From NCBI RefSeq assembly GCF_030384885.1, contig NZ_CP128613.1: DNA of 64,000 nucleotides; one strand, 5' to 3'. Positions 50,980 through 61,484 of the stretch are shown one piece after another. The notes beneath the pieces were generated by a model, which had not been told where the DNA came from, searched no databases, and saw nothing but the letters and a program-made list of their open reading frames with translations. Source of the stretch: Escherichia coli (GTDB lineage Bacteria; Pseudomonadota; Gammaproteobacteria; Enterobacterales; Enterobacteriaceae). Position numbers and translations under genes: made by a program. How positions within the stretch are numbered: position 1 is the first letter of the stretch; every line of letters starts with the position of its first letter.

Positions 50980-52671
50980 ATGAAAACGCTGCTGATTATT
51001 GACGCTAATCTCGGTCAGGCACGCGCCTATATGGCGAAGACCCTGCTGGGCGCGGCGGCGCGAAAAGCAAAACTGGAAATCATCGACAATCCGAACGACG
51101 CTGAAATGGCGATTGTTCTCGGTGATTCCATCCCGAACGACAGCGCGCTGAACGGTAAAAATGTCTGGCTGGGCGATATTTCCCGGGCAGTTGCGCACCC
51201 TGAGCTGTTCCTGAGTGAAGCCAAAGGCCATGCGAAACCTTACACTGCACCGGTCGCTGCGACAGCACCAGTTGCCACCAGCGGTCCGAAACGCGTAGTT
51301 GCGGTGACAGCTTGCCCGACTGGCGTAGCACACACATTTATGGCGGCTGAAGCCATTGAAACCGAAGCGAAAAAACGTGGCTGGTGGGTGAAAGTTGAAA
51401 CCCGTGGTTCTGTTGGCGCGGGTAATGCGATCACCCCTGAAGAAGTAGCCGCAGCGGATCTGGTGATTGTGGCGGCAGATATCGAAGTGGATCTGGCGAA
51501 ATTTGCTGGTAAACCGATGTATCGCACCTCTACCGGTCTGGCGCTGAAGAAAACCGCGCAGGAACTGGATAAAGCGGTTGCTGAAGCAACGCCGTATGAA
51601 CCGGCGGGCAAAGCTCAAACAGCGACCACTGAAGGTAAGAAAGAGGGTGCAGGCGCTTACCGTCACTTGCTGACGGGCGTCTCTTACATGCTGCCGATGG
51701 TCGTTGCAGGTGGTCTGTGTATCGCGCTTTCTTTTGCTTTTGGTATCGAAGCGTTTAAAGAGCCGGGTACGTTGGCAGCGGCGCTGATGCAGATTGGTGG
51801 TGGTTCAGCCTTTGCGCTGATGGTGCCGGTACTGGCAGGTTACATAGCCTTCTCCATTGCCGATCGTCCGGGTCTCACGCCGGGTCTGATTGGCGGTATG
51901 CTGGCGGTCAGCACCGGTTCTGGCTTCATTGGGGGTATTATTGCGGGCTTCCTGGCTGGTTACATTGCGAAGTTAATCAGTACGCAACTGAAACTGCCAC
52001 AGAGTATGGAGGCGCTGAAACCGATCCTGATCATTCCGCTAATTTCCAGTCTGGTGGTCGGTCTGGCGATGATCTACCTGATCGGTAAACCGGTTGCTGG
52101 CATTCTCGAAGGGTTGACTCACTGGCTGCAGACCATGGGGACTGCGAATGCGGTTCTGCTGGGGGCGATCCTCGGTGGCATGATGTGTACTGACATGGGC
52201 GGTCCGGTAAATAAAGCAGCGTACGCATTCGGTGTGGGTCTGCTGAGTACTCAAACCTATGGCCCGATGGCGGCGATTATGGCGGCAGGTATGGTGCCAC
52301 CGCTGGCAATGGGTCTGGCAACAATGGTGGCGCGTCGCAAATTCGACAAAGCGCAGCAGGAAGGTGGCAAAGCCGCTCTGGTTCTTGGTCTGTGCTTTAT
52401 TTCGGAAGGTGCAATTCCGTTTGCTGCTCGTGATCCGATGCGTGTGCTGCCGTGTTGTATCGTTGGTGGGGCGCTGACTGGCGCAATCTCAATGGCGATT
52501 GGTGCGAAACTGATGGCACCGCACGGTGGTCTGTTTGTTCTGCTGATCCCTGGCGCTATTACGCCGGTACTGGGTTACCTGGTAGCAATTATTGCCGGTA
52601 CGCTGGTGGCGGGTTTGGCCTATGCCTTCCTGAAACGTCCGGAAGTGGACGCAGTAGCGAAAGCAGCGTAA
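50980..52671 (+). CDS. fruA: Fructose PTS EIIB'BC component FruA
   Basis: 563-aa ORF; EIIB Cys motif VTACPTGVAHTFMA; multi-TM EIIC domain. Confidence 0.95.
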   Translation: MKTLLIIDANLGQARAYMAKTLLGAAARKAKLEIIDNPNDAEMAIVLGDSIPNDSALNGKNVWLGDISRAVAHPELFLSEAKGHAKPYTAPVAATAPVATSGPKRVVAVTACPTGVAHTFMAAEAIETEAKKRGWWVKVETRGSVGAGNAITPEEVAAADLVIVAADIEVDLAKFAGKPMYRTSTGLALKKTAQELDKAVAEATPYEPAGKAQTATTEGKKEGAGAYRHLLTGVSYMLPMVVAGGLCIALSFAFGIEAFKEPGTLAAALMQIGGGSAFALMVPVLAGYIAFSIADRPGLTPGLIGGMLAVSTGSGFIGGIIAGFLAGYIAKLISTQLKLPQSMEALKPILIIPLISSLVVGLAMIYLIGKPVAGILEGLTHWLQTMGTANAVLLGAILGGMMCTDMGGPVNKAAYAFGVGLLSTQTYGPMAAIMAAGMVPPLAMGLATMVARRKFDKAQQEGGKAALVLGLCFISEGAIPFAARDPMRVLPCCIVGGALTGAISMAIGAKLMAPHGGLFVLLIPGAITPVLGYLVAIIAGTLVAGLAYAFLKRPEVDAVAKAA

Positions 52672-52826
52672 TAAAAGGTGTGTTACAGGGCAGAAATTTC
52701 CTGCCCTGTAACATTTGATGAGCGCAAAGGGAATGACCAGTTTGTGAATGTAATTTTATGAATTTAAATGGTTTTATCTTTCAGTAGAAACCTGAAATGT
52801 TCATCAAACACTAAGGTTATTTCCTC

Positions 52827-52854
52827 AAGGGCAGATTATTTTCTGCCCTTTTTA
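52827..52854 (+). terminator. Rho-independent terminator after fruA
   Basis: aaGGGCAGattattttCTGCCCttttt; a weaker hairpin also at 52681-52713. Confidence 0.8.
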
Positions 52855-53093
52855 GTGTTCCTGTTCTGTGCATCCCGTCACAAATTCCTCACTTTTGTAA
52901 TTCAGGCATTTAATCGCATTTTGTGAGCCTGCTCAAATCTGCCCATTTTGCCTCTCTGGCGGCAATTTACTTTACGTAAAACATGCATACTATGAGCACA
53001 TGTTTAAATATGAACACATGTTTAAACCGTCTTTGCAGTATCTATATTCTTGTGGATTGACAGGGTTGGTAATTTTTTACCAGAGGACGTGCT

Positions 53094-54035
53094 ATGCGCG
53101 AAAAGGATTATGTCGTAATTATAGGCTCGGCGAATATTGATGTCGCCGGATATTCACATGAATCATTAAATTATGCGGATTCAAATCCAGGTAAAATAAA
53201 ATTTACGCCTGGTGGGGTAGGGCGCAATATTGCACAAAACCTGGCGTTGCTGGGTAATAAAGCCTGGCTACTGAGCGCCGTAGGCAGTGATTTTTATGGT
53301 CAATCGCTGCTAACGCAAACCAATCAATCTGGCGTTTATGTCGATAAATGCCTGATTGTGCCGGGAGAAAATACGTCGAGCTATTTATCATTACTCGATA
53401 ATACCGGTGAAATGCTGGTTGCTATAAATGACATGAATATTAGCAACGCTATTACAGCTGAATATCTCGCACAGCACCGTGAATTTATTCAGAGGGCAAA
53501 GGTCATTGTCGCGGACTGTAATATCAGTGAAGAGGCACTGGCATGGATTCTGGATAATGCCGCCAACGTACCCATATTTGTCGATCCTGTTTCTGCGTGG
53601 AAATGTGTCAAAGTGCGCGACCGTCTAAATCTGATCCACACTCTCAAGCCAAACCGCCTTGAAGCGGAAACCCTGAGTGGGATTGCGCTGTCAGGGCGTG
53701 AAGATGTGGCAAAGGTTGCCGCCTGGTTCCATCAACATGGCCTGAACCGCCTGGTGCTGAGCATGGGCGGTGATGGTGTTTATTACAGTGATATCGGCGG
53801 TGAAAGTGGTTGGTCTGCGCCGATTAAAACCAATGTCATTAATGTTACCGGAGCGGGCGATGCCATGATGGCGGGACTTGCTTCGTGTTGGGTAGACGGA
53901 ATGCCGTTTGCCGAATCTGTTCGTTTCGCACAGGGATGTTCGTCAATGGCGCTCTCCTGTGAATACACCAATAACCCCGATTTATCGATTGCCAACGTTA
54001 TATCGTTAGTGGAGAACGCAGAATGTCTGAATTAA
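53094..54035 (+). CDS. psuK: Pseudouridine kinase PsuK (YeiC), pfkB family
   Basis: 313-aa ORF with TGAGDAMMAG motif; AT-rich coding sequence. Confidence 0.85.
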   Translation: MREKDYVVIIGSANIDVAGYSHESLNYADSNPGKIKFTPGGVGRNIAQNLALLGNKAWLLSAVGSDFYGQSLLTQTNQSGVYVDKCLIVPGENTSSYLSLLDNTGEMLVAINDMNISNAITAEYLAQHREFIQRAKVIVADCNISEEALAWILDNAANVPIFVDPVSAWKCVKVRDRLNLIHTLKPNRLEAETLSGIALSGREDVAKVAAWFHQHGLNRLVLSMGGDGVYYSDIGGESGWSAPIKTNVINVTGAGDAMMAGLASCWVDGMPFAESVRFAQGCSSMALSCEYTNNPDLSIANVISLVENAECLN

Positions 54036-54961
54036 AAATTTCCCCTGAATTATTACAAATTTCCCCGGAAGTGCAGGACGCTTTAAAAAACAAAAAACCG
54101 GTTGTGGCACTGGAATCGACAATTATTTCTCACGGGATGCCATTCCCGCAAAATGCTGAGACGGCAATTGAAGTAGAAGACACAATTCGTAAGCACGGTG
54201 CTGTACCTGCAACAATCGCCATTATTGGTGGTGTCATGAAAGTAGGTTTGAGCAAAGAAGAAATTGAATTGTTAGGCCGTGAAGGACATAACGTGACGAA
54301 AGTCAGTCGCCGTGATTTACCTTTTGTCGTTGCCGCAGGAAAAAATGGCGCGACCACCGTTGCTTCAACGATGATTATCGCGGCACTGGCAGGAATTAAA
54401 GTATTTGCAACGGGGGGGATTGGTGGTGTGCATCGCGGTGCGGAACATACATTCGATATTTCTGCCGATTTACAGGAACTGGCAAATACTAATGTCACCG
54501 TTGTTTGTGCCGGTGCAAAATCTATTCTCGATTTAGGATTAACAACAGAATATTTAGAAACCTTCGGTGTACCGTTAATTGGCTATCAGACAAAAGCGCT
54601 GCCTGCGTTTTTCTGCCGTACCAGCCCATTTGAAGTCAGTATTCGCCTTGATAGTGCCACGGAAATCGCTCGTGCAATGGCAGTGAAATGGCAAACCGGT
54701 TTGAACGGCGGCCTGGTAGTGGCGAATCCGATCCCGGAGCAGTTTGCGATGCCGGAGGAATCTATCAATGCAGCCATAGATCAAGCTGTCGCCGAAGCCG
54801 AAGAGCAGGGCGTTATTGGTAAAGAAAGTACACCGTTCCTGCTGGCTCGTGTTGCTGAACTGACCGGTGGTGACAGCCTGAAATCCAACATCCAACTGGT
54901 GTTCAACAACGCCATTCTGGCGAGCGAAATTGCCAAAGAATACCAGCGTCTCGCGGGTTAA
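54023..54961 (+). CDS. psuG: Pseudouridine-5'-phosphate glycosidase PsuG (YeiN)
   Basis: 312-aa ORF overlapping psuK end by 13 nt. Confidence 0.85.
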   Translation: MSELKISPELLQISPEVQDALKNKKPVVALESTIISHGMPFPQNAETAIEVEDTIRKHGAVPATIAIIGGVMKVGLSKEEIELLGREGHNVTKVSRRDLPFVVAAGKNGATTVASTMIIAALAGIKVFATGGIGGVHRGAEHTFDISADLQELANTNVTVVCAGAKSILDLGLTTEYLETFGVPLIGYQTKALPAFFCRTSPFEVSIRLDSATEIARAMAVKWQTGLNGGLVVANPIPEQFAMPEESINAAIDQAVAEAEEQGVIGKESTPFLLARVAELTGGDSLKSNIQLVFNNAILASEIAKEYQRLAG

Positions 54962-55054
54962 TTTCTGACGGGCAGAAAGCCGTCGCCCGTACTGATCATA
55001 CATACCAAAACCTGGCGCTAACGCCGGGTTTACTGGCATGAAAGGAAAATCATT

Positions 55055-56292
55055 ATGGATATAATGAGAAGTTTGGTGGGTATGGTGGTATTGCTGGCAA
55101 TTGCATTCTTATTGTCAGTGAATAAAAAAGGTATCAGCATACGCACGGTCGGGGCTGCATTGCTGCTGCAAATCGCTATTGGTGGCATTATGCTCTACTT
55201 CCCACCGGGAAAATGGGCAGTAGAGCAGGCGGCATTAGGCGTGCATAAAGTGATGTCTTACAGTGATGCCGGTAGCGCCTTCATTTTTGGTTCGCTGGTT
55301 GGGCCGAAAATGGATGTCCTGTTTGATGGCGCGGGCTTTATCTTCGCCTTTCGCGTACTTCCGGCAATTATTTTCGTCACAGCGCTCATCAGCCTGCTGT
55401 ACTACATTGGCGTGATGGGGCTGCTAATCCGCATTCTTGGCAGTATTTTTCAGAAAGCCCTCAACATCAGCAAAATCGAATCTTTTGTTGCGGTTACCAC
55501 TATTTTCCTCGGGCAAAATGAGATCCCGGCGATCGTTAAACCGTTTATCGATCGCATGAATCGCAACGAGCTATTTACGGCAATTTGTAGCGGGATGGCG
55601 TCCATTGCCGGTTCGATGATGATTGGTTATGCCGGAATGGGCGTACCAATTGACTACCTGTTAGCGGCATCGCTGATGGTATTTTGTTTGCACGTATTCT
55701 TAGCCCAGCCACCGAGCCTTCGCAGGTGACATTTGAAAATCTGTCGTTCAGCGAAACGCCGCCAAAAAGCTTTATCGAAGCGGCGGCGAGCGGTGCGATG
55801 ACCGGGTTGAAAATCGCCGCTGGTGTGGCGACGGTGGTAATGGCGTTTGTGGCAATTATTGCGCTGATCAACGGCATTATCGGCGGAATTGGTGGCTGGT
55901 TTGGTTTTTCCAATGCCTCTCTGGAAAGTATTTTTGGCTATGTGCTGGCACCGCTGGCGTGGATCATGGGCGTGGACTGGAGTGATGCCAACCTTGCGGG
56001 TAGCCTGATTGGGCAGAAACTGGCGATTAACGAATTCGTCGCTTACCTGAGTTTCTCCCCATACCTGCAAACGGGCGGCACGCTGGAAGTGAAAACCATT
56101 GCGATTATCTCCTTTGCGCTTTGTGGTTTTGCTAACTTTGGTTCTATCGGTGTTGTCGTTGGGGCGTTTTCGGCTATTTCGCCAAAACGCGCGCCGGAAA
56201 TCGCTCAGCTTGGGTTACGGGCGTTGGCAGCAGCAACGCTTTCAAACCTGATGAGTGCGACCATTGCCGGGTTCTTTATTGGTTTAGCTTGA
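55055..56292 (+). pseudogene. psuT: Nucleoside (putative pseudouridine) transporter PsuT/YeiM, frameshifted into two ORFs (55055-55729 and 55684-56292)
   Basis: The two ORFs are in different frames and together span 1238 nt versus 1251 nt for intact paralog nupX; by-eye alignment places a 13-nt gap between 55679 and 55680. Confidence 0.7.
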
Positions 56293-56299
56293 GTTTCAT

Positions 56300-56338
56300 T
56301 GCCGGATGTACGCGCTTATTAAGCGTTGCATCCGGCAA
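56300..56338. terminator. REP-like palindromic hairpin between convergent psuT and yeiL
   Basis: tTGCCGGATGtacgcgcttattaagcgttgCATCCGGCAa. Confidence 0.55.
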
Positions 56339-56360
56339 TCGCGCTATTCCAGATTATTTT

Positions 56361-57020
56361 TTACTGCATCATCCCGGAGAATTTATTCTCCGGGTCCATC
56401 TCCAGCGCCAGCCCTAACAACTGCTTTCTGTTTTTAATCAGATACCCTTTCTTGCTTTTAATTAATAAACCGTCATGAATGAATTGCGCGAGAACATATA
56501 AAAGATGTCGATAAGAAACGCCCAAATACTCTGCCGCTTGCGTATGCTTTTCTTGATAAAGATCACCTTCCTGCGAGAGTAATATAAAAGCTGCCAGGCG
56601 ATTCATTAACGGAAATGATTGATTCTGAGTTAAAGAAACAATATTACGATAATTTTTATGACTTAAGGTGACGCAGAGTTTTCGTAAAAATAGCGTATCG
56701 TTTAATAACAGCGGGCGGTAATGTTTCATAGGGAGCGCAAGGCACCAACACTCTTCAATCGCCTGTACCGCTCGTGGTTCATGATCTTTATCGATTAACT
56801 CAATCTCGCCAATAAAACAGGGTGCAGCAAAGAAATCAATCAGCGACACGCGACCATTAGCAAGCGTGGCGTAAAGCCTGGCGCGGCCTCGCGTCAGGTA
56901 AAACAGCCATGACGGCTGTTGCCCTTCCTGCACAATGTAGTCACGCGCTAAAAAATGAAACAGCCGTGTATCGGCTGAAACATCCGTTGAAAAGCAATCC
57001 TTATACGCGGACTCACTCAT
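56361..57020 (-). CDS. yeiL: Crp/Fnr-family transcriptional regulator YeiL (Nsr)
   Basis: 219 aa from ATG at 57018-57020 ([13 protein letters not shown]...); cNMP-binding-like domain and C-terminal HTH. Confidence 0.85.
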
Positions 57021-57188
57021 CAATTGCTGCTTAAGATCATTATTGTGGATTTCTTTCACGATGTTTATCCGCTATGAGATTTCTCATATTTAGCATACGT
57101 ACGCTGTTGTTAAGATTCAATCATCGGCCCGGTCGAATTTTCTTTGCTGTAGAAAAAATAACGCAACTGGAAACAGAGGAAATAAACA

Positions 57189-58130
57189 ATGGAAAAGAGA
57201 AAAATTATTCTGGATTGTGATCCGGGTCATGATGATGCTATTGCCATAATGATGGCCGCGAAACATCCGGTGATTGATTTATTAGGTATCACTATTGTGG
57301 CGGGGAATCAAACCCTCGATAAAACATTAATTAATGGCCTGAATGTTTGCCAGAAACTGGAGATTAATGTTCCGGTTTATGCGGGGATGCCGCAACCCAT
57401 TATGCGTCAACAAATCGTTGCCGATAATATTCACGGTGAAACCGGACTTGATGGCCCGGTATTCGAGCCGCTGACCCGCCAGGCAGAAAGTACCCATGCG
57501 GTGAAATATATCATCGATACCCTGATGGCAAGCGATGGCGATATCACTCTGGTGCCGGTTGGTCCGCTTTCAAATATCGCGGTGGCAATGCGTATGCAGC
57601 CCGCAATCCTGCCGAAAATCCGTGAAATTGTACTGATGGGCGGCGCTTACGGTACTGGCAACTTCACCCCATCTGCCGAGTTCAACATCTTTGCTGACCC
57701 GGAAGCGGCACGTGTGGTGTTCACCTCCGGCGTTCCATTAGTAATGATGGGCCTCGATCTCACCAACCAGACCGTTTGCACCCCGGACGTGATTGCACGA
57801 ATGGAAAGGGCAGGCGGCCCTGCCGGAGAGCTGTTCAGCGACATCATGAACTTCACTCTCAAAACTCAGTTCGAAAACTACGGCCTGGCTGGCGGCCCGG
57901 TGCATGACGCCACCTGTATCGGTTATCTGATTAACCCCGATGGCATTAAAACCCAGGAGATGTACGTCGAAGTGGACGTCAACAGTGGCCCTTGTTACGG
58001 GCGTACCGTCTGCGACGAGCTGGGCGTTCTTGGCAAGCCCGCCAATACCAAAGTCGGCATCACTATTGATACCGACTGGTTCTGGGGATTAGTCGAAGAG
58101 TGCGTGCGCGGCTACATCAAAACCCATTAA
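57189..58130 (+). CDS. rihB: Pyrimidine-specific ribonucleoside hydrolase RihB (YeiK)
   Basis: 313-aa ORF with N-terminal DCDPGHDDA nucleoside hydrolase motif. Confidence 0.9.
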
Positions 58131-58229
58131 GTGTTGATAACAAGCCGGGACAGTATCGCAAGATGCAAGCCTGGCTATTTCTGATGGGCAGAAAGCCGTC
58201 GCCCAAAATGACATGAAGAGATAATAACT

Positions 58230-59480
58230 ATGGATGTCATGAGAAGTGTTCTGGGAATGGTGGTACTGCTGGCAATTGCGTTTTTGCTGTCAGTAAACAA
58301 GAAGAAGATCAGCCTGCGTACCGTTGGCGCGGCGTTAGTGTTACAGGTCGTGATTGGCGGCATTATGCTTTGGTTACCGCCAGGGCGTTGGGTCGCAGAA
58401 AAAGTCGCTTTTGGCGTGCATAAAGTGATGGCGTACAGCGACGCAGGTAGCGCATTTATCTTCGGTTCTCTGGTTGGACCGAAAATGGACACCTTATTTG
58501 ATGGCGCAGGATTTATCTTTGGTTTCAGGGTATTACCGGCAATTATCTTCGTTACAGCACTGGTGAGTATTCTCTACTACATCGGTGTGATGGGGATCTT
58601 AATTCGCATTCTCGGCGGTATATTCCAGAAAGCGTTAAATATCAGCAAGATCGAGTCATTCGTCGCGGTCACTACCATTTTCCTCGGGCAAAACGAAATT
58701 CCGGCAATCGTCAAACCCTTTATCGATCGTCTGAATCGCAATGAATTATTTACAGCGATTTGTAGCGGGATGGCCTCGATTGCTGGTTCGACAATGATTG
58801 GTTACGCCGCACTGGGCGTGCCTGTGGAATATCTGCTGGCGGCATCGTTAATGGCTATCCCTGGCGGGATCTTGTTTGCCCGCATGTTAAGTCCGGCTAC
58901 GGAATCTTCGCAGGTTTCCTTTAATAACCTCTCTTTCACCGAAACACCGCCAAAAAGCATTATTGAAGCCGCTGCTACAGGGGCAATGACCGGGCTGAAA
59001 ATCGCTGCAGGTGTGGCGACAGTGGTGATGGCATTTGTCGCCATCATTGCGTTGATCAACGGTGTTATCGGCGGCGTTGGTGGCTGGTTTGGTTTTGAAC
59101 ATGCCTCGCTGGAGTCCATTTTAGGTTACCTGCTGGCCCCGCTGGCGTGGGTGATGGGGGTTGACTGGAGTGATGCGAATCTTGCCGGGAGTTTGATTGG
59201 ACAGAAACTGGCGATTAATGAATTTGTCGCTTACCTCAATTTCTCACCTTATCTGCAAACAGCTGGCACTCTGGATGCTAAAACCGTGGCGATTATTTCC
59301 TTCGCGTTGTGCGGATTCGCTAACTTTGGTTCTATCGGGGTGGTGGTTGGCGCATTTTCTGCGGTTGCGCCACACCGTGCGCCGGAAATCGCCCAGCTTG
59401 GTTTACGCGCGCTGGCGGCGGCGACACTTTCTAACCTGATGAGTGCCACCATTGCAGGATTCTTTATTGGCTTAGCGTAG
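58230..59480 (+). CDS. nupX: Nucleoside permease NupX (YeiJ), CNT family
   Basis: 416-aa intact ORF; close paralog of the psuT reading frames. Confidence 0.9.
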   Translation: MDVMRSVLGMVVLLAIAFLLSVNKKKISLRTVGAALVLQVVIGGIMLWLPPGRWVAEKVAFGVHKVMAYSDAGSAFIFGSLVGPKMDTLFDGAGFIFGFRVLPAIIFVTALVSILYYIGVMGILIRILGGIFQKALNISKIESFVAVTTIFLGQNEIPAIVKPFIDRLNRNELFTAICSGMASIAGSTMIGYAALGVPVEYLLAASLMAIPGGILFARMLSPATESSQVSFNNLSFTETPPKSIIEAAATGAMTGLKIAAGVATVVMAFVAIIALINGVIGGVGGWFGFEHASLESILGYLLAPLAWVMGVDWSDANLAGSLIGQKLAINEFVAYLNFSPYLQTAGTLDAKTVAIISFALCGFANFGSIGVVVGAFSAVAPHRAPEIAQLGLRALAAATLSNLMSATIAGFFIGLA

Positions 59481-59496
59481 TGCGCGAGTTATGAGC

Positions 59497-59530
59497 CGGA
59501 TAAGACGCGGTCAAGCGTCGAATCCGGCAA
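59497..59530. terminator. REP-like palindromic hairpin between convergent nupX and yeiI
   Basis: GCCGGATaagacgcggtcaagcgtcgaATCCGGC. Confidence 0.5.
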
Positions 59531-59535
59531 GATTG

Positions 59536-60624
59536 TTACACCATCGGCACTAATGAAAGCGCGTTATCGGCAGACAGGGTAGGGTTGTTTAAGCTGCCGC
59601 TGGCGCGTGAAATTGCCGCGCAGGCCATCGCAAAACGGGCACTATCACGGAAACTGCTTCCTTCCAGAAAGCTATACACCAGGCCCGCCATAAAACCATC
59701 GTCAGCACCAAAACTGTCTACCGTCGTATGCGCTGGCGCAGTCAGCAAAAATTGTTCGCCATCCTTTTGGCTGCAATAAACAGACTCATCGGGCAAATAA
59801 ACAAACAGTTGCTGAACGCCTTGCTGATGCAACGCATTCACTGCGGCATTACGATCAGCATCGCGGGTTATCGGCTGGCCCCATAAAATTTCCAGCTCCG
59901 GCAAAGTGGGTTTCAGAGTGTGAATATGCGCCAGCCAGTGTTTGATTTTGCCCGCTTTGAATTCTGAAACGGTATCGACAAACACCGGGATTTCATCAGC
60001 GAGGGTAAAGACCCACTCCAGCGCCTCGGCTGTCAGGTTGCAATCAGCCAGTACCACGCCCGCATGACGAAGTAAATCGCGCGACCCGTTCAGTAGTTGC
60101 GGTGTCAACTGATCCAGCAGATGGGTATCGTTAATCGCCAGCACGGTTTGATCGTCTCGATTGGCAATTGCCAGATACGTCGATGTGCTTTGACCATGTA
60201 AACGAACGCAGCCGGAGACATTCACGCCGGCGCGGCGCGTTTCTTCCAGGAGCATTTCGCCATAAAAGTCATCGCCAATCACTGAAAGCAAATGGACGTC
60301 GCGGCCTAACAGCGCCAGATTGTGGGCGATATTGCGTCCAACGCCGCCTGCCGAGCAATGAATTGTACCGGGATGAGAAGCCGCTTGCGGGTAACGGATA
60401 TCCGCCATCCCGCGAATATCCATATTGATTGTCCCCACCACTACGCAGTATTCCTGCTCGGTGAGAATGTAACCTTTGCCTTTAATCCGACCTTTGCGCA
60501 TTAAATCCATAATATGCGCTGCAACACGCGAACGGCTGATTTGCAGCATATCCGCAATTTCGTTCTGCTGAATCAGCGGGTTACGCCTTAATATTGCAAG
60601 GATCTCCTTCTCCCGGTTATTCAT
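59536..60624 (-). CDS. yeiI: Putative sugar/nucleoside kinase with N-terminal HTH domain YeiI
   Basis: 362-aa ORF; N-terminal HTH (EILAILRRNPLIQQNEIADMLQISRSRV) fused to a pfkB-type kinase domain. Confidence 0.85.
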   Translation of the reverse strand: MNNREKEILAILRRNPLIQQNEIADMLQISRSRVAAHIMDLMRKGRIKGKGYILTEQEYCVVVGTINMDIRGMADIRYPQAASHPGTIHCSAGGVGRNIAHNLALLGRDVHLLSVIGDDFYGEMLLEETRRAGVNVSGCVRLHGQSTSTYLAIANRDDQTVLAINDTHLLDQLTPQLLNGSRDLLRHAGVVLADCNLTAEALEWVFTLADEIPVFVDTVSEFKAGKIKHWLAHIHTLKPTLPELEILWGQPITRDADRNAAVNALHQQGVQQLFVYLPDESVYCSQKDGEQFLLTAPAHTTVDSFGADDGFMAGLVYSFLEGSSFRDSARFAMACAAISRASGSLNNPTLSADNALSLVPMV

Positions 60625-60626
60625 CT

Positions 60627-61484
60627 TCAGGCTACCGCTTTTTCAGTTTGTTGCGCTTTCAGCCAGGCGATCTCTTCTGCCCAGATATCCGGGTTGATGG
60701 TTTCAAGGATCAGCGGAATGCCGTCGAAACGGTCGTCCTGCATGATCCAGCGGAACGCATCATGACCGATATTGCCTTCACCGAGGCTATGATGGCGGTC
60801 AACGCGGCTGCCAAAGGTGCTTTTCGCATCGTTAAGGTGCATCCCGCGCAGATACTTAAAGCCGACAATACGGGCAAAATCCGCGAACGTTTTCTCGCAT
60901 TCGGCAGGAGTACGCAAATCATACCCGGCAGCAAAAGCATGGCAGGTATCAATGCAGACGCCGACGCGGGATTTATCTTCCACGCCGTCGATAATCGCCG
61001 CGAGATGTTCGAATTTAAACCCTAAATTGCTGCCCTGACCGGCGGTGTTTTCAATCACCGCTGTCACACCTTGAGTTTTATCCAGCGCAATGTTGATGGA
61101 TTCGGCAATACGCGCAAGGCAATCCTCTTCTGAAATCTGCATCAGATGGCTGCCAGGGTGGAAGTTGAGCAAAGAAAGCCCCAGCTGTTCGCAACGCTGC
61201 ATTTCATCTATAAACGCATCGCGCGATTTTTCCAGAGCTTCAGCGACCGGATGTCCGAGGTTAATCAGATAACTGTCGTGGGGAAGAATTTGCGCCGATG
61301 TGTAGTGATATTTTTCACAGGCGGCTTTGAATTCATCGATGGTTTGCGTCGTGAGCGGTGCGGCACGCCACTGACGTTGGTTTTTGGTGAACAAGGCAAA
61401 CGCGGTTGCGTCGATTTCGGCGGCGCGAATTGCGGCATTTGCCAGACCGCCAGCAGCACTAACGTGCGCTCCAATGTATTTCAT
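60627..61484 (-). CDS. nfo: Endonuclease IV (AP endonuclease)
   Basis: 285-aa [42 protein letters not shown]... Confidence 0.95.

Follow-up and report, generated by a model that had tools for sequence, protein, structure and literature searches.

What does a nearly identical stretch of 28 nucleotides do in front of two paralogous transporter genes? The question is raised by a 64,000-nt stretch of an Escherichia coli genome (contig NZ_CP128613.1 of assembly GCF_030384885.1), referred to here as the window, in which psuT and nupX, two genes for transporters of the CNT family, carry such a sequence in their leaders. The 28-mer ATTTCTGACGGGCAGAAAGCCGTCGCCC is found at 54961–54988 on the + strand and occurs again at 58177–58204 (+) as ATTTCTGATGGGCAGAAAGCCGTCGCCC, the same save for one C to T change, the spacing of the two copies being 3216 bp. 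The first base of copy one is the final A of the TAA (54959–54961) that stops psuG; this copy ends 66 nt upstream of the psuT ATG (55055), and the second ends 25 nt upstream of the nupX ATG (58230). This recurrence had been picked out beforehand by a sequence-only reading of the window, and both the positions and the single mismatch were confirmed: no further match with three or fewer mismatches is present across the 64 kb, and none appeared in 100 dinucleotide-preserving shuffles. The present study points to a conserved mRNA hairpin at this position, designated H1, and, more tentatively, to its recognition by a trans-acting partner.

PsuT and NupX share 88% amino-acid identity, and their genes 77–81% identity at the DNA level. 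Since identity at four-fold degenerate sites is just 46–53%, a match of 27 out of 28 nucleotides lies far above neutral expectation, the chance of it at the neutral paralog rate being P ~5e-7 per position. Blast searches found the motif in 5424 of 5426 complete genomes of E. coli, the number of places per genome being 1–3 with a median of two, and the matches listed sit at the psuG–psuT or the rihB–nupX junction. With this copy number the motif does not have the character of a dispersed repeat (REP/BIME, ERIC or BoxC) or of a CRISPR repeat.

Structure and sequence of the H1 hairpin

On the mRNA-sense strand, H1 takes the form Y-GGGC, an 11-nt loop and GCCC-R, with a G+C-rich stem of 5–7 bp (Table 1). 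A compensatory change is present within the window itself, the closing pair, C-G in front of psuT, being U-A in front of nupX. In an alignment of 44 distinct 37-mers (alignment A3), the core five base pairs are formed in 219 of 220 cells. By A3 columns, pair 9–29 is C-G in 36 sequences, U-A in six and U.G in two; pair 10–28 is G-C in 40 and A-U in four; and the outer pair 8–30 is G-C in 15, A-U in 13 and G.U in two. None of 500 shuffles reached the observed percentage of paired cells or the observed covariation score, a control that is not to be read as a probability, and when the register was moved by 1–3 columns pairing fell to 32–52%. The core wobbles on the + strand comprise four G.U pairs against one A.C mismatch, and polymorphisms within E. 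coli (L197, L198) are wobbles too. Because these wobbles are G.U and not A.C, the strand that folds is the mRNA sense strand. With its helix kept in orthologues and paralogues by compensatory and sense-strand wobble changes, H1 is, as far as can be judged from the alignments, a structured cis-acting mRNA element.

The pairing proposed by the sequence-only reading, of GACGG with CCGTC, did not survive this comparison. Its central pair (columns 10–21) fails to form in 14 of the 20 distinct sequences and does not covary, and the helix is specific to Escherichia and not conserved. The same is true of the helix formed by the other Escherichia palindrome, TTTCTG/CAGAAA, which is paired in 59% of cells, and an H-type pseudoknot of the two overlapping palindromes, with loops of 0–1 nt, was set aside as sterically implausible.

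Every instance of H1 has a loop of 11 nt with near-invariant bases in the pattern nGnnnGCnGUn, positions 2, 6, 7, 9 and 10 having an entropy of ≤0.15 bits and positions 3, 4 and 8 one of 1.0–1.7 bits. In the same set of 45 long leaders, the entropy is 0.9–1.9 bits in the tetraloop of a second hairpin downstream, H2, and averages 1.24 bits in the linker between the two hairpins. Loop positions 2 and 11 of H1 can themselves pair (G-C in 34, G.U in six and A-U in one), leaving a one-base bulge, and the stem is nearly fixed in sequence as GGGC/GCCC. Such a pattern of constraint, affecting loop and stem alike, is that expected of a site which is read by something, beyond mere folding.

Strong conservation of the stem sequence itself, over and above its complementarity, could also be that of a DNA operator, here an inverted repeat CGGGC-N11-GCCCG, for a transcription factor acting at an internal transporter promoter, and genes for the regulators yeiL and yeiI (helix-turn-helix domain) lie nearby in many loci. 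However, the wobbles are strand-asymmetric (G.U, not A.C), one genome of Enterobacter hormaechei has both a GGGC/GCCC and an AGGC/GCCT version, the half-sites are 15 bp apart from centre to centre, on opposite helix faces, and the conserved bases of the spacer are asymmetric. There is no conserved -35/-10 nearby, and H1 also occurs where yeiL or yeiI is missing. The sequence-only reading had offered an operator or a leader RNA structure; the latter is the best reading, while an operator is disfavoured by the sense-strand G.U pairs, the two E. hormaechei stems and the half-site spacing, and is in our estimation highly improbable. Though its half-sites are conserved, the predicted site does not appear to be a palindromic transcription-factor operator.

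Table 1. Coordinates of the genes and leader elements in the window.
Feature	Coordinates	Strand	Remarks
5′ flank ATTTCTG of the 28-mer, psuT copy	54961..54967	+	Same as 58177–58183; unconserved outside Escherichia; A1/A3 columns 1–8 mean entropy 1.54 bits
H1, psuT copy: stem A-CGGGC (54968–54973) / GCCCG-U (54985–54990), loop AGAAAGCCGUC (54974–54984)	54968..54990	+	Isolated fold −11.1 kcal/mol; covariance-model match 44 bits
Linker ACUGAUCAUACAUACCA between H1 and H2, C/A-rich, G-poor	54991..55007	+	Partly conserved (AUCA...AUACC); mean entropy 1.24 bits
H2, AAACCUGGCG-CUAA-CGCCGGGUUU, second hairpin of the psuT leader, terminator-like	55008..55031	+	RNAalifold consensus, leader alignments
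psuT, CNT-family transporter gene with H1 copy 1 in its leader	55055..56292	+	13-bp deletion after 55677
H0 hairpin AGCCGGG...CCUGGCU, directly after rihB and immediately 5′ of the nupX H1	58143..58176	+	Fold; unrelated hairpins here in other genera
H1, nupX copy: stem UGGGC (58185–58189) / GCCCA (58201–58205), loop AGAAAGCCGUC (58190–58200)	58185..58205	+	Fold −8.3 kcal/mol
nupX, paralogous CNT transporter gene with H1 copy 2 in its leader	58230..59480	+

Distribution of H1 and near-identity of the Escherichia copies

Leaders were collected without reference to the motif, by two routes. The first took the loci of NupX relatives, with one genome per species, together with contigs carrying selected homologues; the second took 107 metagenome stretches using a pattern that consisted only of the 3′ arm of H2 and the start-codon region, with Escherichia excluded. 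Of 46 distinct leaders of the psuT/nupX type, 45 have H1 where the motif lies. Their sources are about 12 Enterobacteriaceae genera (Escherichia, Citrobacter, Salmonella, Klebsiella, Kluyvera, Leclercia, Enterobacter, Buttiauxella, Superficieibacter, Dryocola and Entomohabitans, plus the isolate 'H11S18') and metagenomes, and the metagenome leaders with H1 came from a pattern that did not contain it. The motif is thus retained, as H1, in the orthologous leaders of related genomes for both paralogs across the family, and the functional cis element suggested by the sequence-only reading is likely on that ground.

A search with an H1 covariance model covered 905 kb, made up of the window and 89 loci, and took in about 70 loci of NupC homologues. 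Within these 905 kb it revealed no copies beyond the training instances, and none upstream of NupC homologues of about 50% identity (Vibrio, Pasteurellaceae, Halomonadaceae, Burkholderia and others). Two marginal matches were rejected as lying inside coding sequences, the one in L067 being a palindrome of the coding sequence. The association with CNT transporters that had been envisaged therefore holds for the PsuT/NupX subclade and does not extend to the NupC homologues of about 50% identity. The nearest outgroup, a homologue of 72% identity beside psuG in 'Klebsiella sp. BIGb0407', has an unrelated hairpin in the place of H1, and Entomohabitans psuT has an unrelated, perfect hairpin of 15 bp at the H1 position. 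Each transporter of the subclade lies directly 3′ of psuG or rihB in the loci collected, and H1 is always intercistronic, between one of these enzyme genes and psuT or nupX, with which the operon ends. By the evidence of these leaders, H1 is older than the psuT/nupX duplication, the ancestral leader having apparently been copied along with the transporter gene.

The two leaders are homologous along their length, and consist of H1, a C/A-rich linker (AUCA..AUACC..AAA), H2 and CUGGCAUGAAGGnAAAUCAUU-AUG. The earlier view that the surroundings of the motif had otherwise diverged needs amending to this extent: the whole leader is homologous between the paralogs, and what is correct is that it has been remodelled by deletions. 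The linker is shortened or deleted in several lineages and is nearly all gone from the nupX leader of the window. H2, with an A-tract, a 10-bp stem and just U3–4, the U's of which can pair with the upstream A-tract, is terminator-like and lies about 20 nt downstream of H1 in long leaders. It is kept in all of these, an invariance that is partly ascertained as regards its 3′ arm, which was in the search pattern. It has been deleted from the short nupX leaders of E. coli (including the window), Salmonella, Buttiauxella and Kluyvera, by what looks like a deletion between CUGGC repeats. H1, the 5′-most and best-kept part, is the only element present in all leader forms, at 24–67 nt from the start codon, and on the alignments its retention is shown to be independent both of that distance and of H2. 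In psuT-type leaders the H1 stem starts 7–10 nt past the psuG stop codon, which would bring it into contact with a terminating ribosome. Where the leader is of the nupX type, H1 lies 45–60 nt past the rihB stop codon, behind another hairpin of variable sequence.

The start codons are also enclosed in structure, each lying inside a small hairpin with codons 3–5 (55050–55067 and 58208–58240). In psuT this is UCAUUAU-GGAU-AUAAUGA, and in nupX it is AUGACAU...AUGUCAU, which encloses the Shine-Dalgarno sequence and the AUG. The upstream half of the start-codon hairpin (AUCAUU) is conserved in nearly all leaders.

Paralogous copies of H1 differ at about 5–6 of 21 positions in Kluyvera and at about 9 of 21 in E. 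hormaechei, as against one of 28 in Escherichia, where the 28-nt stretch includes eight upstream bases that vary freely among genera. The nupX copy of E. coli differs from those of Salmonella, Buttiauxella and Kluyvera at flank positions 2–3 and loop positions 3 and 8, and at these differing positions it has the state of E. coli psuT; a C at loop position 8 is Escherichia-specific. As an unconserved flank is identical in both Escherichia copies, and as E. coli nupX carries psuT states, a short gene conversion between the two leaders is suspected; judged by these sequences it probably occurred in the Escherichia lineage, atop long-term purifying selection. The alternative is a parallel change driven by a shared partner. 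Conversion, or parallel change, explains the 27/28 match and not the conservation across genera.

Gene conversion could also be pressed further, so that H1 would have no function and its identity would be a by-product of duplication followed by recent conversion between the leaders. The Escherichia copies, at one difference in 28 with the unconserved flank included, are indeed far closer than the pairs of Kluyvera or E. hormaechei, and E. coli nupX has the psuT-like derived states. But H1 is retained in genera with one paralog, and in both paralogs with diverged loops, compensatory changes are not explained by conversion, and the flanking homology that conversion needs is minimal. We give this account very little credence, and it is largely refuted by the conservation across genera.

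What H1 may do

We tentatively favour the reading that H1 is a sequence-specific mRNA recognition hairpin for a trans-acting partner, which sets the output of the transporter apart from that of the enzymes. The partner that binds H1 would most likely be a protein, and less likely a small RNA (sRNA) or a small ligand. Its binding would set transporter expression, by read-through at H2 where this is present, by decay or by translation, apart from expression of the co-transcribed catabolic enzymes, and the 27/28 identity in the window would then reflect the constraint on H1 together with a probable short gene conversion. A more far-reaching version is that H1 is the recognition hairpin of a new post-transcriptional regulator of pseudouridine and pyrimidine-nucleoside uptake, either as a very small metabolite-sensing RNA or as the target of an RNA-binding protein coupling nucleoside availability to transporter synthesis, with the 11-nt loop nGnnnGCnGUn as the specificity determinant; this we consider doubtful.

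Several observations weigh against recognition by a specific partner. The independent compensatory events are few, about 4–6, and many of the sequences are close relatives. For H1, alternative pairings that are conserved were found neither in the alignments nor by RNAalifold, whether with H2, with the linker or with the Shine-Dalgarno sequence, and no switch is evident. No candidate partner gene consistently co-occurs, yeiL and yeiI being absent from some H1 loci, and published tables of 3′ ends and of the Hfq interactome (3′-end mapping, RIL-seq, Hfq-CLASH) have nothing at H1. The replacement hairpins of Entomohabitans psuT and of BIGb0407 can be explained by a generic role of hairpins no less well than by a specific role.

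The published 3′-end maps place Rho-dependent ends elsewhere, not at H1. In Hfq-CLASH data from E. coli K-12, CpxQ, the sRNA from the cpxP 3′ untranslated region, forms chimeras with psuT as well as with nupX, in the 5′ part of each coding region, and CyaR–nupX chimeras are found in the coding region (PMC7213987). The two transporters may be under sRNA control, though away from the hairpin.

Recognition by a partner must first of all be weighed against a passive role, in which H1 would be a structural hairpin acting without one, as an intercistronic barrier or processing element. It could block 3′ exonucleases and so stabilise the upstream enzyme mRNA, or form a cap-like stem at the 5′ end of a processed mRNA for the transporter, either of which would result in unequal expression of enzyme and transporter. 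Such a role would suit the invariably intercistronic location, the unrelated hairpins that stand at the H1 position in two lineages (Entomohabitans psuT and the BIGb0407 homologue), and the single-stranded A/U/C-rich linker, potentially cut by RNase E, that comes after H1; it would also suit the lack of alternative pairings and the variable distance to the start codon. Hairpins of this kind include the REP hairpins of malEFG and the hairpin protecting iscR in iscRSUA. H1 resembles them as a stable hairpin with the cistron of a soluble enzyme on its 5′ side and that of a membrane protein on its 3′ side, and in being independent of the distance to the ribosome-binding site. Unlike REP elements, it is found in a median of two copies per genome, and the two sites are paralogous. 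Its loop and stem sequences are constrained as well; a barrier needs neither a fixed 11-nt loop nor five near-invariant loop bases nor a near-invariant GGGC/GCCC stem, and the loop of H2, close by in the same genomes, drifts freely. The stability of H1 is also only moderate, at −8 to −11 kcal/mol. A passive role is, in our view, possible and rather unlikely.

H1 is not itself an intrinsic terminator: its 3′ neighbour is GUACUGAU, AAAAUGAC or CGAAUAUC, with no U run, it is not among the terminator-scan predictions, and there is no U-tract on the reverse strand either. Two further candidates were tried and rejected. An antiterminator pairing of the H1 3′ arm with the arms of H2 amounts to only 4–5 bp in E. 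coli and is not conserved, and for a promoter right upstream, which would make H1 a 5′-terminal stem, there are AT-rich patches in some leaders, but these are inconsistent.

Recognition of a hairpin ahead of a terminator is known from protein-dependent antitermination leaders, such as Klebsiella nasF bound by NasR, the targets of ANTAR proteins, and the ribonucleic antiterminator (RAT) elements of BglG and SacY. In anatomy only, the long leaders of the present study are alike, with an upstream hairpin that has conserved loop bases, a linker, and a terminator-like hairpin before the regulated gene. Unlike ANTAR targets, which are paired hexaloops, H1 has an 11-nt loop, and unlike RAT it does not overlap the terminator; the short nupX leaders are without H2, and no antiterminator-protein gene is linked. 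By anatomy, the closest kinds would be leaders made up of a recognition hairpin plus terminator (the NasR/nasF type) and intercistronic stabiliser hairpins, H1 sharing the defining features of neither beyond layout.

The conserved unpaired bases of the loop, and genes that serve nucleoside and pseudouridine uptake, are also what might be expected if H1 were a very small riboswitch sensor, or H1 and H2 together an attenuator, for a nucleoside-related metabolite (pseudouridine or its phosphate), as is the terminator-like H2 with U3–4 about 20 nt downstream in long leaders. The PreQ1-I riboswitch, the smallest known natural aptamer, is a precedent, and demonstrates that an aptamer can be built from a 5-bp stem and a loop of about 11 nt. 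The similarities to it comprise the 5-bp stem, the loop of about 11 nt with conserved bases, an A-rich tail and a location upstream of a transporter or salvage gene. The differences are that no conserved pairing of tail and loop (P2) was found, that there is no Rfam match and that the sequences are unrelated. A preQ1-like P2, of loop GGU(C) with a downstream ACC or GACC, was tried and rejected, loop position 8 varying uncompensated, and there is no conserved pseudoknot partner. Moreover, H2 is missing from short nupX leaders that still have H1, and the linker varies in length and is sometimes deleted. An aptamer with mutually exclusive pairings was not found in the alignments or by RNAalifold, H1 being a single hairpin, and we regard a riboswitch as improbable.

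A weaker resemblance is to the ops element of RfaH (GGCGGTAGnnTG). The 3′ part of the H1 loop and the start of its 3′ arm (GCGGTCGC) match 7 of the 10 specified positions, and these include the equivalents of G5 and T6, which are the invariant loop bases G9 and U10 of H1. The H1 consensus aGCGGTCGCCCG differs from the 12-nt ops consensus at positions 1, 7 and 11 (G1, A7 and T11; alignment A3), and H1 is intercistronic in small catabolic operons, in contrast to ops, which is in the 5′ leader of long envelope operons. The resemblance is probably due to chance. Positions 54979–54989 (A3 columns 19–29) read GCGGTCGCCCG in most genera and also fit the pause-like pattern G(-10)...C(-1)G(+1). A likeness to the tRNA D-arm was rejected, its geometry being different.

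Rfam 15 has nothing on H1 at E≤10 in 52000–61000. Scans of short segments returned only isrJ (17.8 bits, where the gathering score is 37), FsrA and terminator-type sRNA matches, all of them weak and H2-driven. The literature searched likewise held nothing on the regulation of psuT or nupX. The sequence-only reading had not recognised the motif as a known site, and as far as could be found H1 is apparently undescribed so far; it belongs with the structured cis-acting leader elements of mRNAs, a broad class.

The surrounding operons and the place of H1 in nucleoside scavenging

The gene order in the window is psuK-psuG-psuT, yeiL (on the opposite strand) and rihB-nupX, with names taken from the RefSeq annotation of matching E. 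coli genomes. Against most E. coli the DNA of the window has an identity of about 95%, which rises to 99.7% for strain 2013C-4282. Compared with K-12-like E. coli, psuT has a 13-bp deletion (55677–55678) that divides it into two open reading frames, 55055–55729 and 55684–56292, and in this strain it is probably a pseudogene; its leader hairpin is intact despite the disruption. In E. coli 13C1065T, rihB is cut by IS1 and the 3′ arm of the nupX H1 has lost one C (GCCC to GCC), a loss that fits with decay of the whole operon. Escherichia albertii NBRC 107761 has a single transporter of the PsuT/NupX type, in the order psuK-psuG-transporter and then directly yeiI and nfo, with no yeiL-rihB-nupX, a layout that is either the ancestral state or the result of a deletion between the two paralogs. 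The region is likewise shortened in some E. coli genomes.

Two tandem repeats were also seen further upstream. An 18-bp repeat (TATGAGCACATGTTTAAA / TATGAACACATGTTTAAA) at 52991–53026 lies 70–100 nt 5′ of the psuK ATG (53094), overlaps a promoter-like site at 53021–53048, and is a candidate operator of the psuKG(T) promoter. A 19-nt near-repeat (ATTAAAAATTTCCCCTGAA / ATTACAAATTTCCCCGGAA) at 54031–54070 is situated at the start of psuG (ATG 54023), in the region of the psuK/psuG overlap.

Little is understood of the operons psuKGT and rihB-nupX, which serve nucleoside scavenging in E. coli and its relatives. If H1 is a passive stabiliser, then it would be an ordinary feature of operon architecture. 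A hairpin that has outlasted both the duplication of its gene and divergence at the level of genera, with sequence-specific constraint on its loop, provides a handle, of 21 nt, for finding how the transporters are controlled, and H1 is a candidate for a new entry in RNA-family databases.

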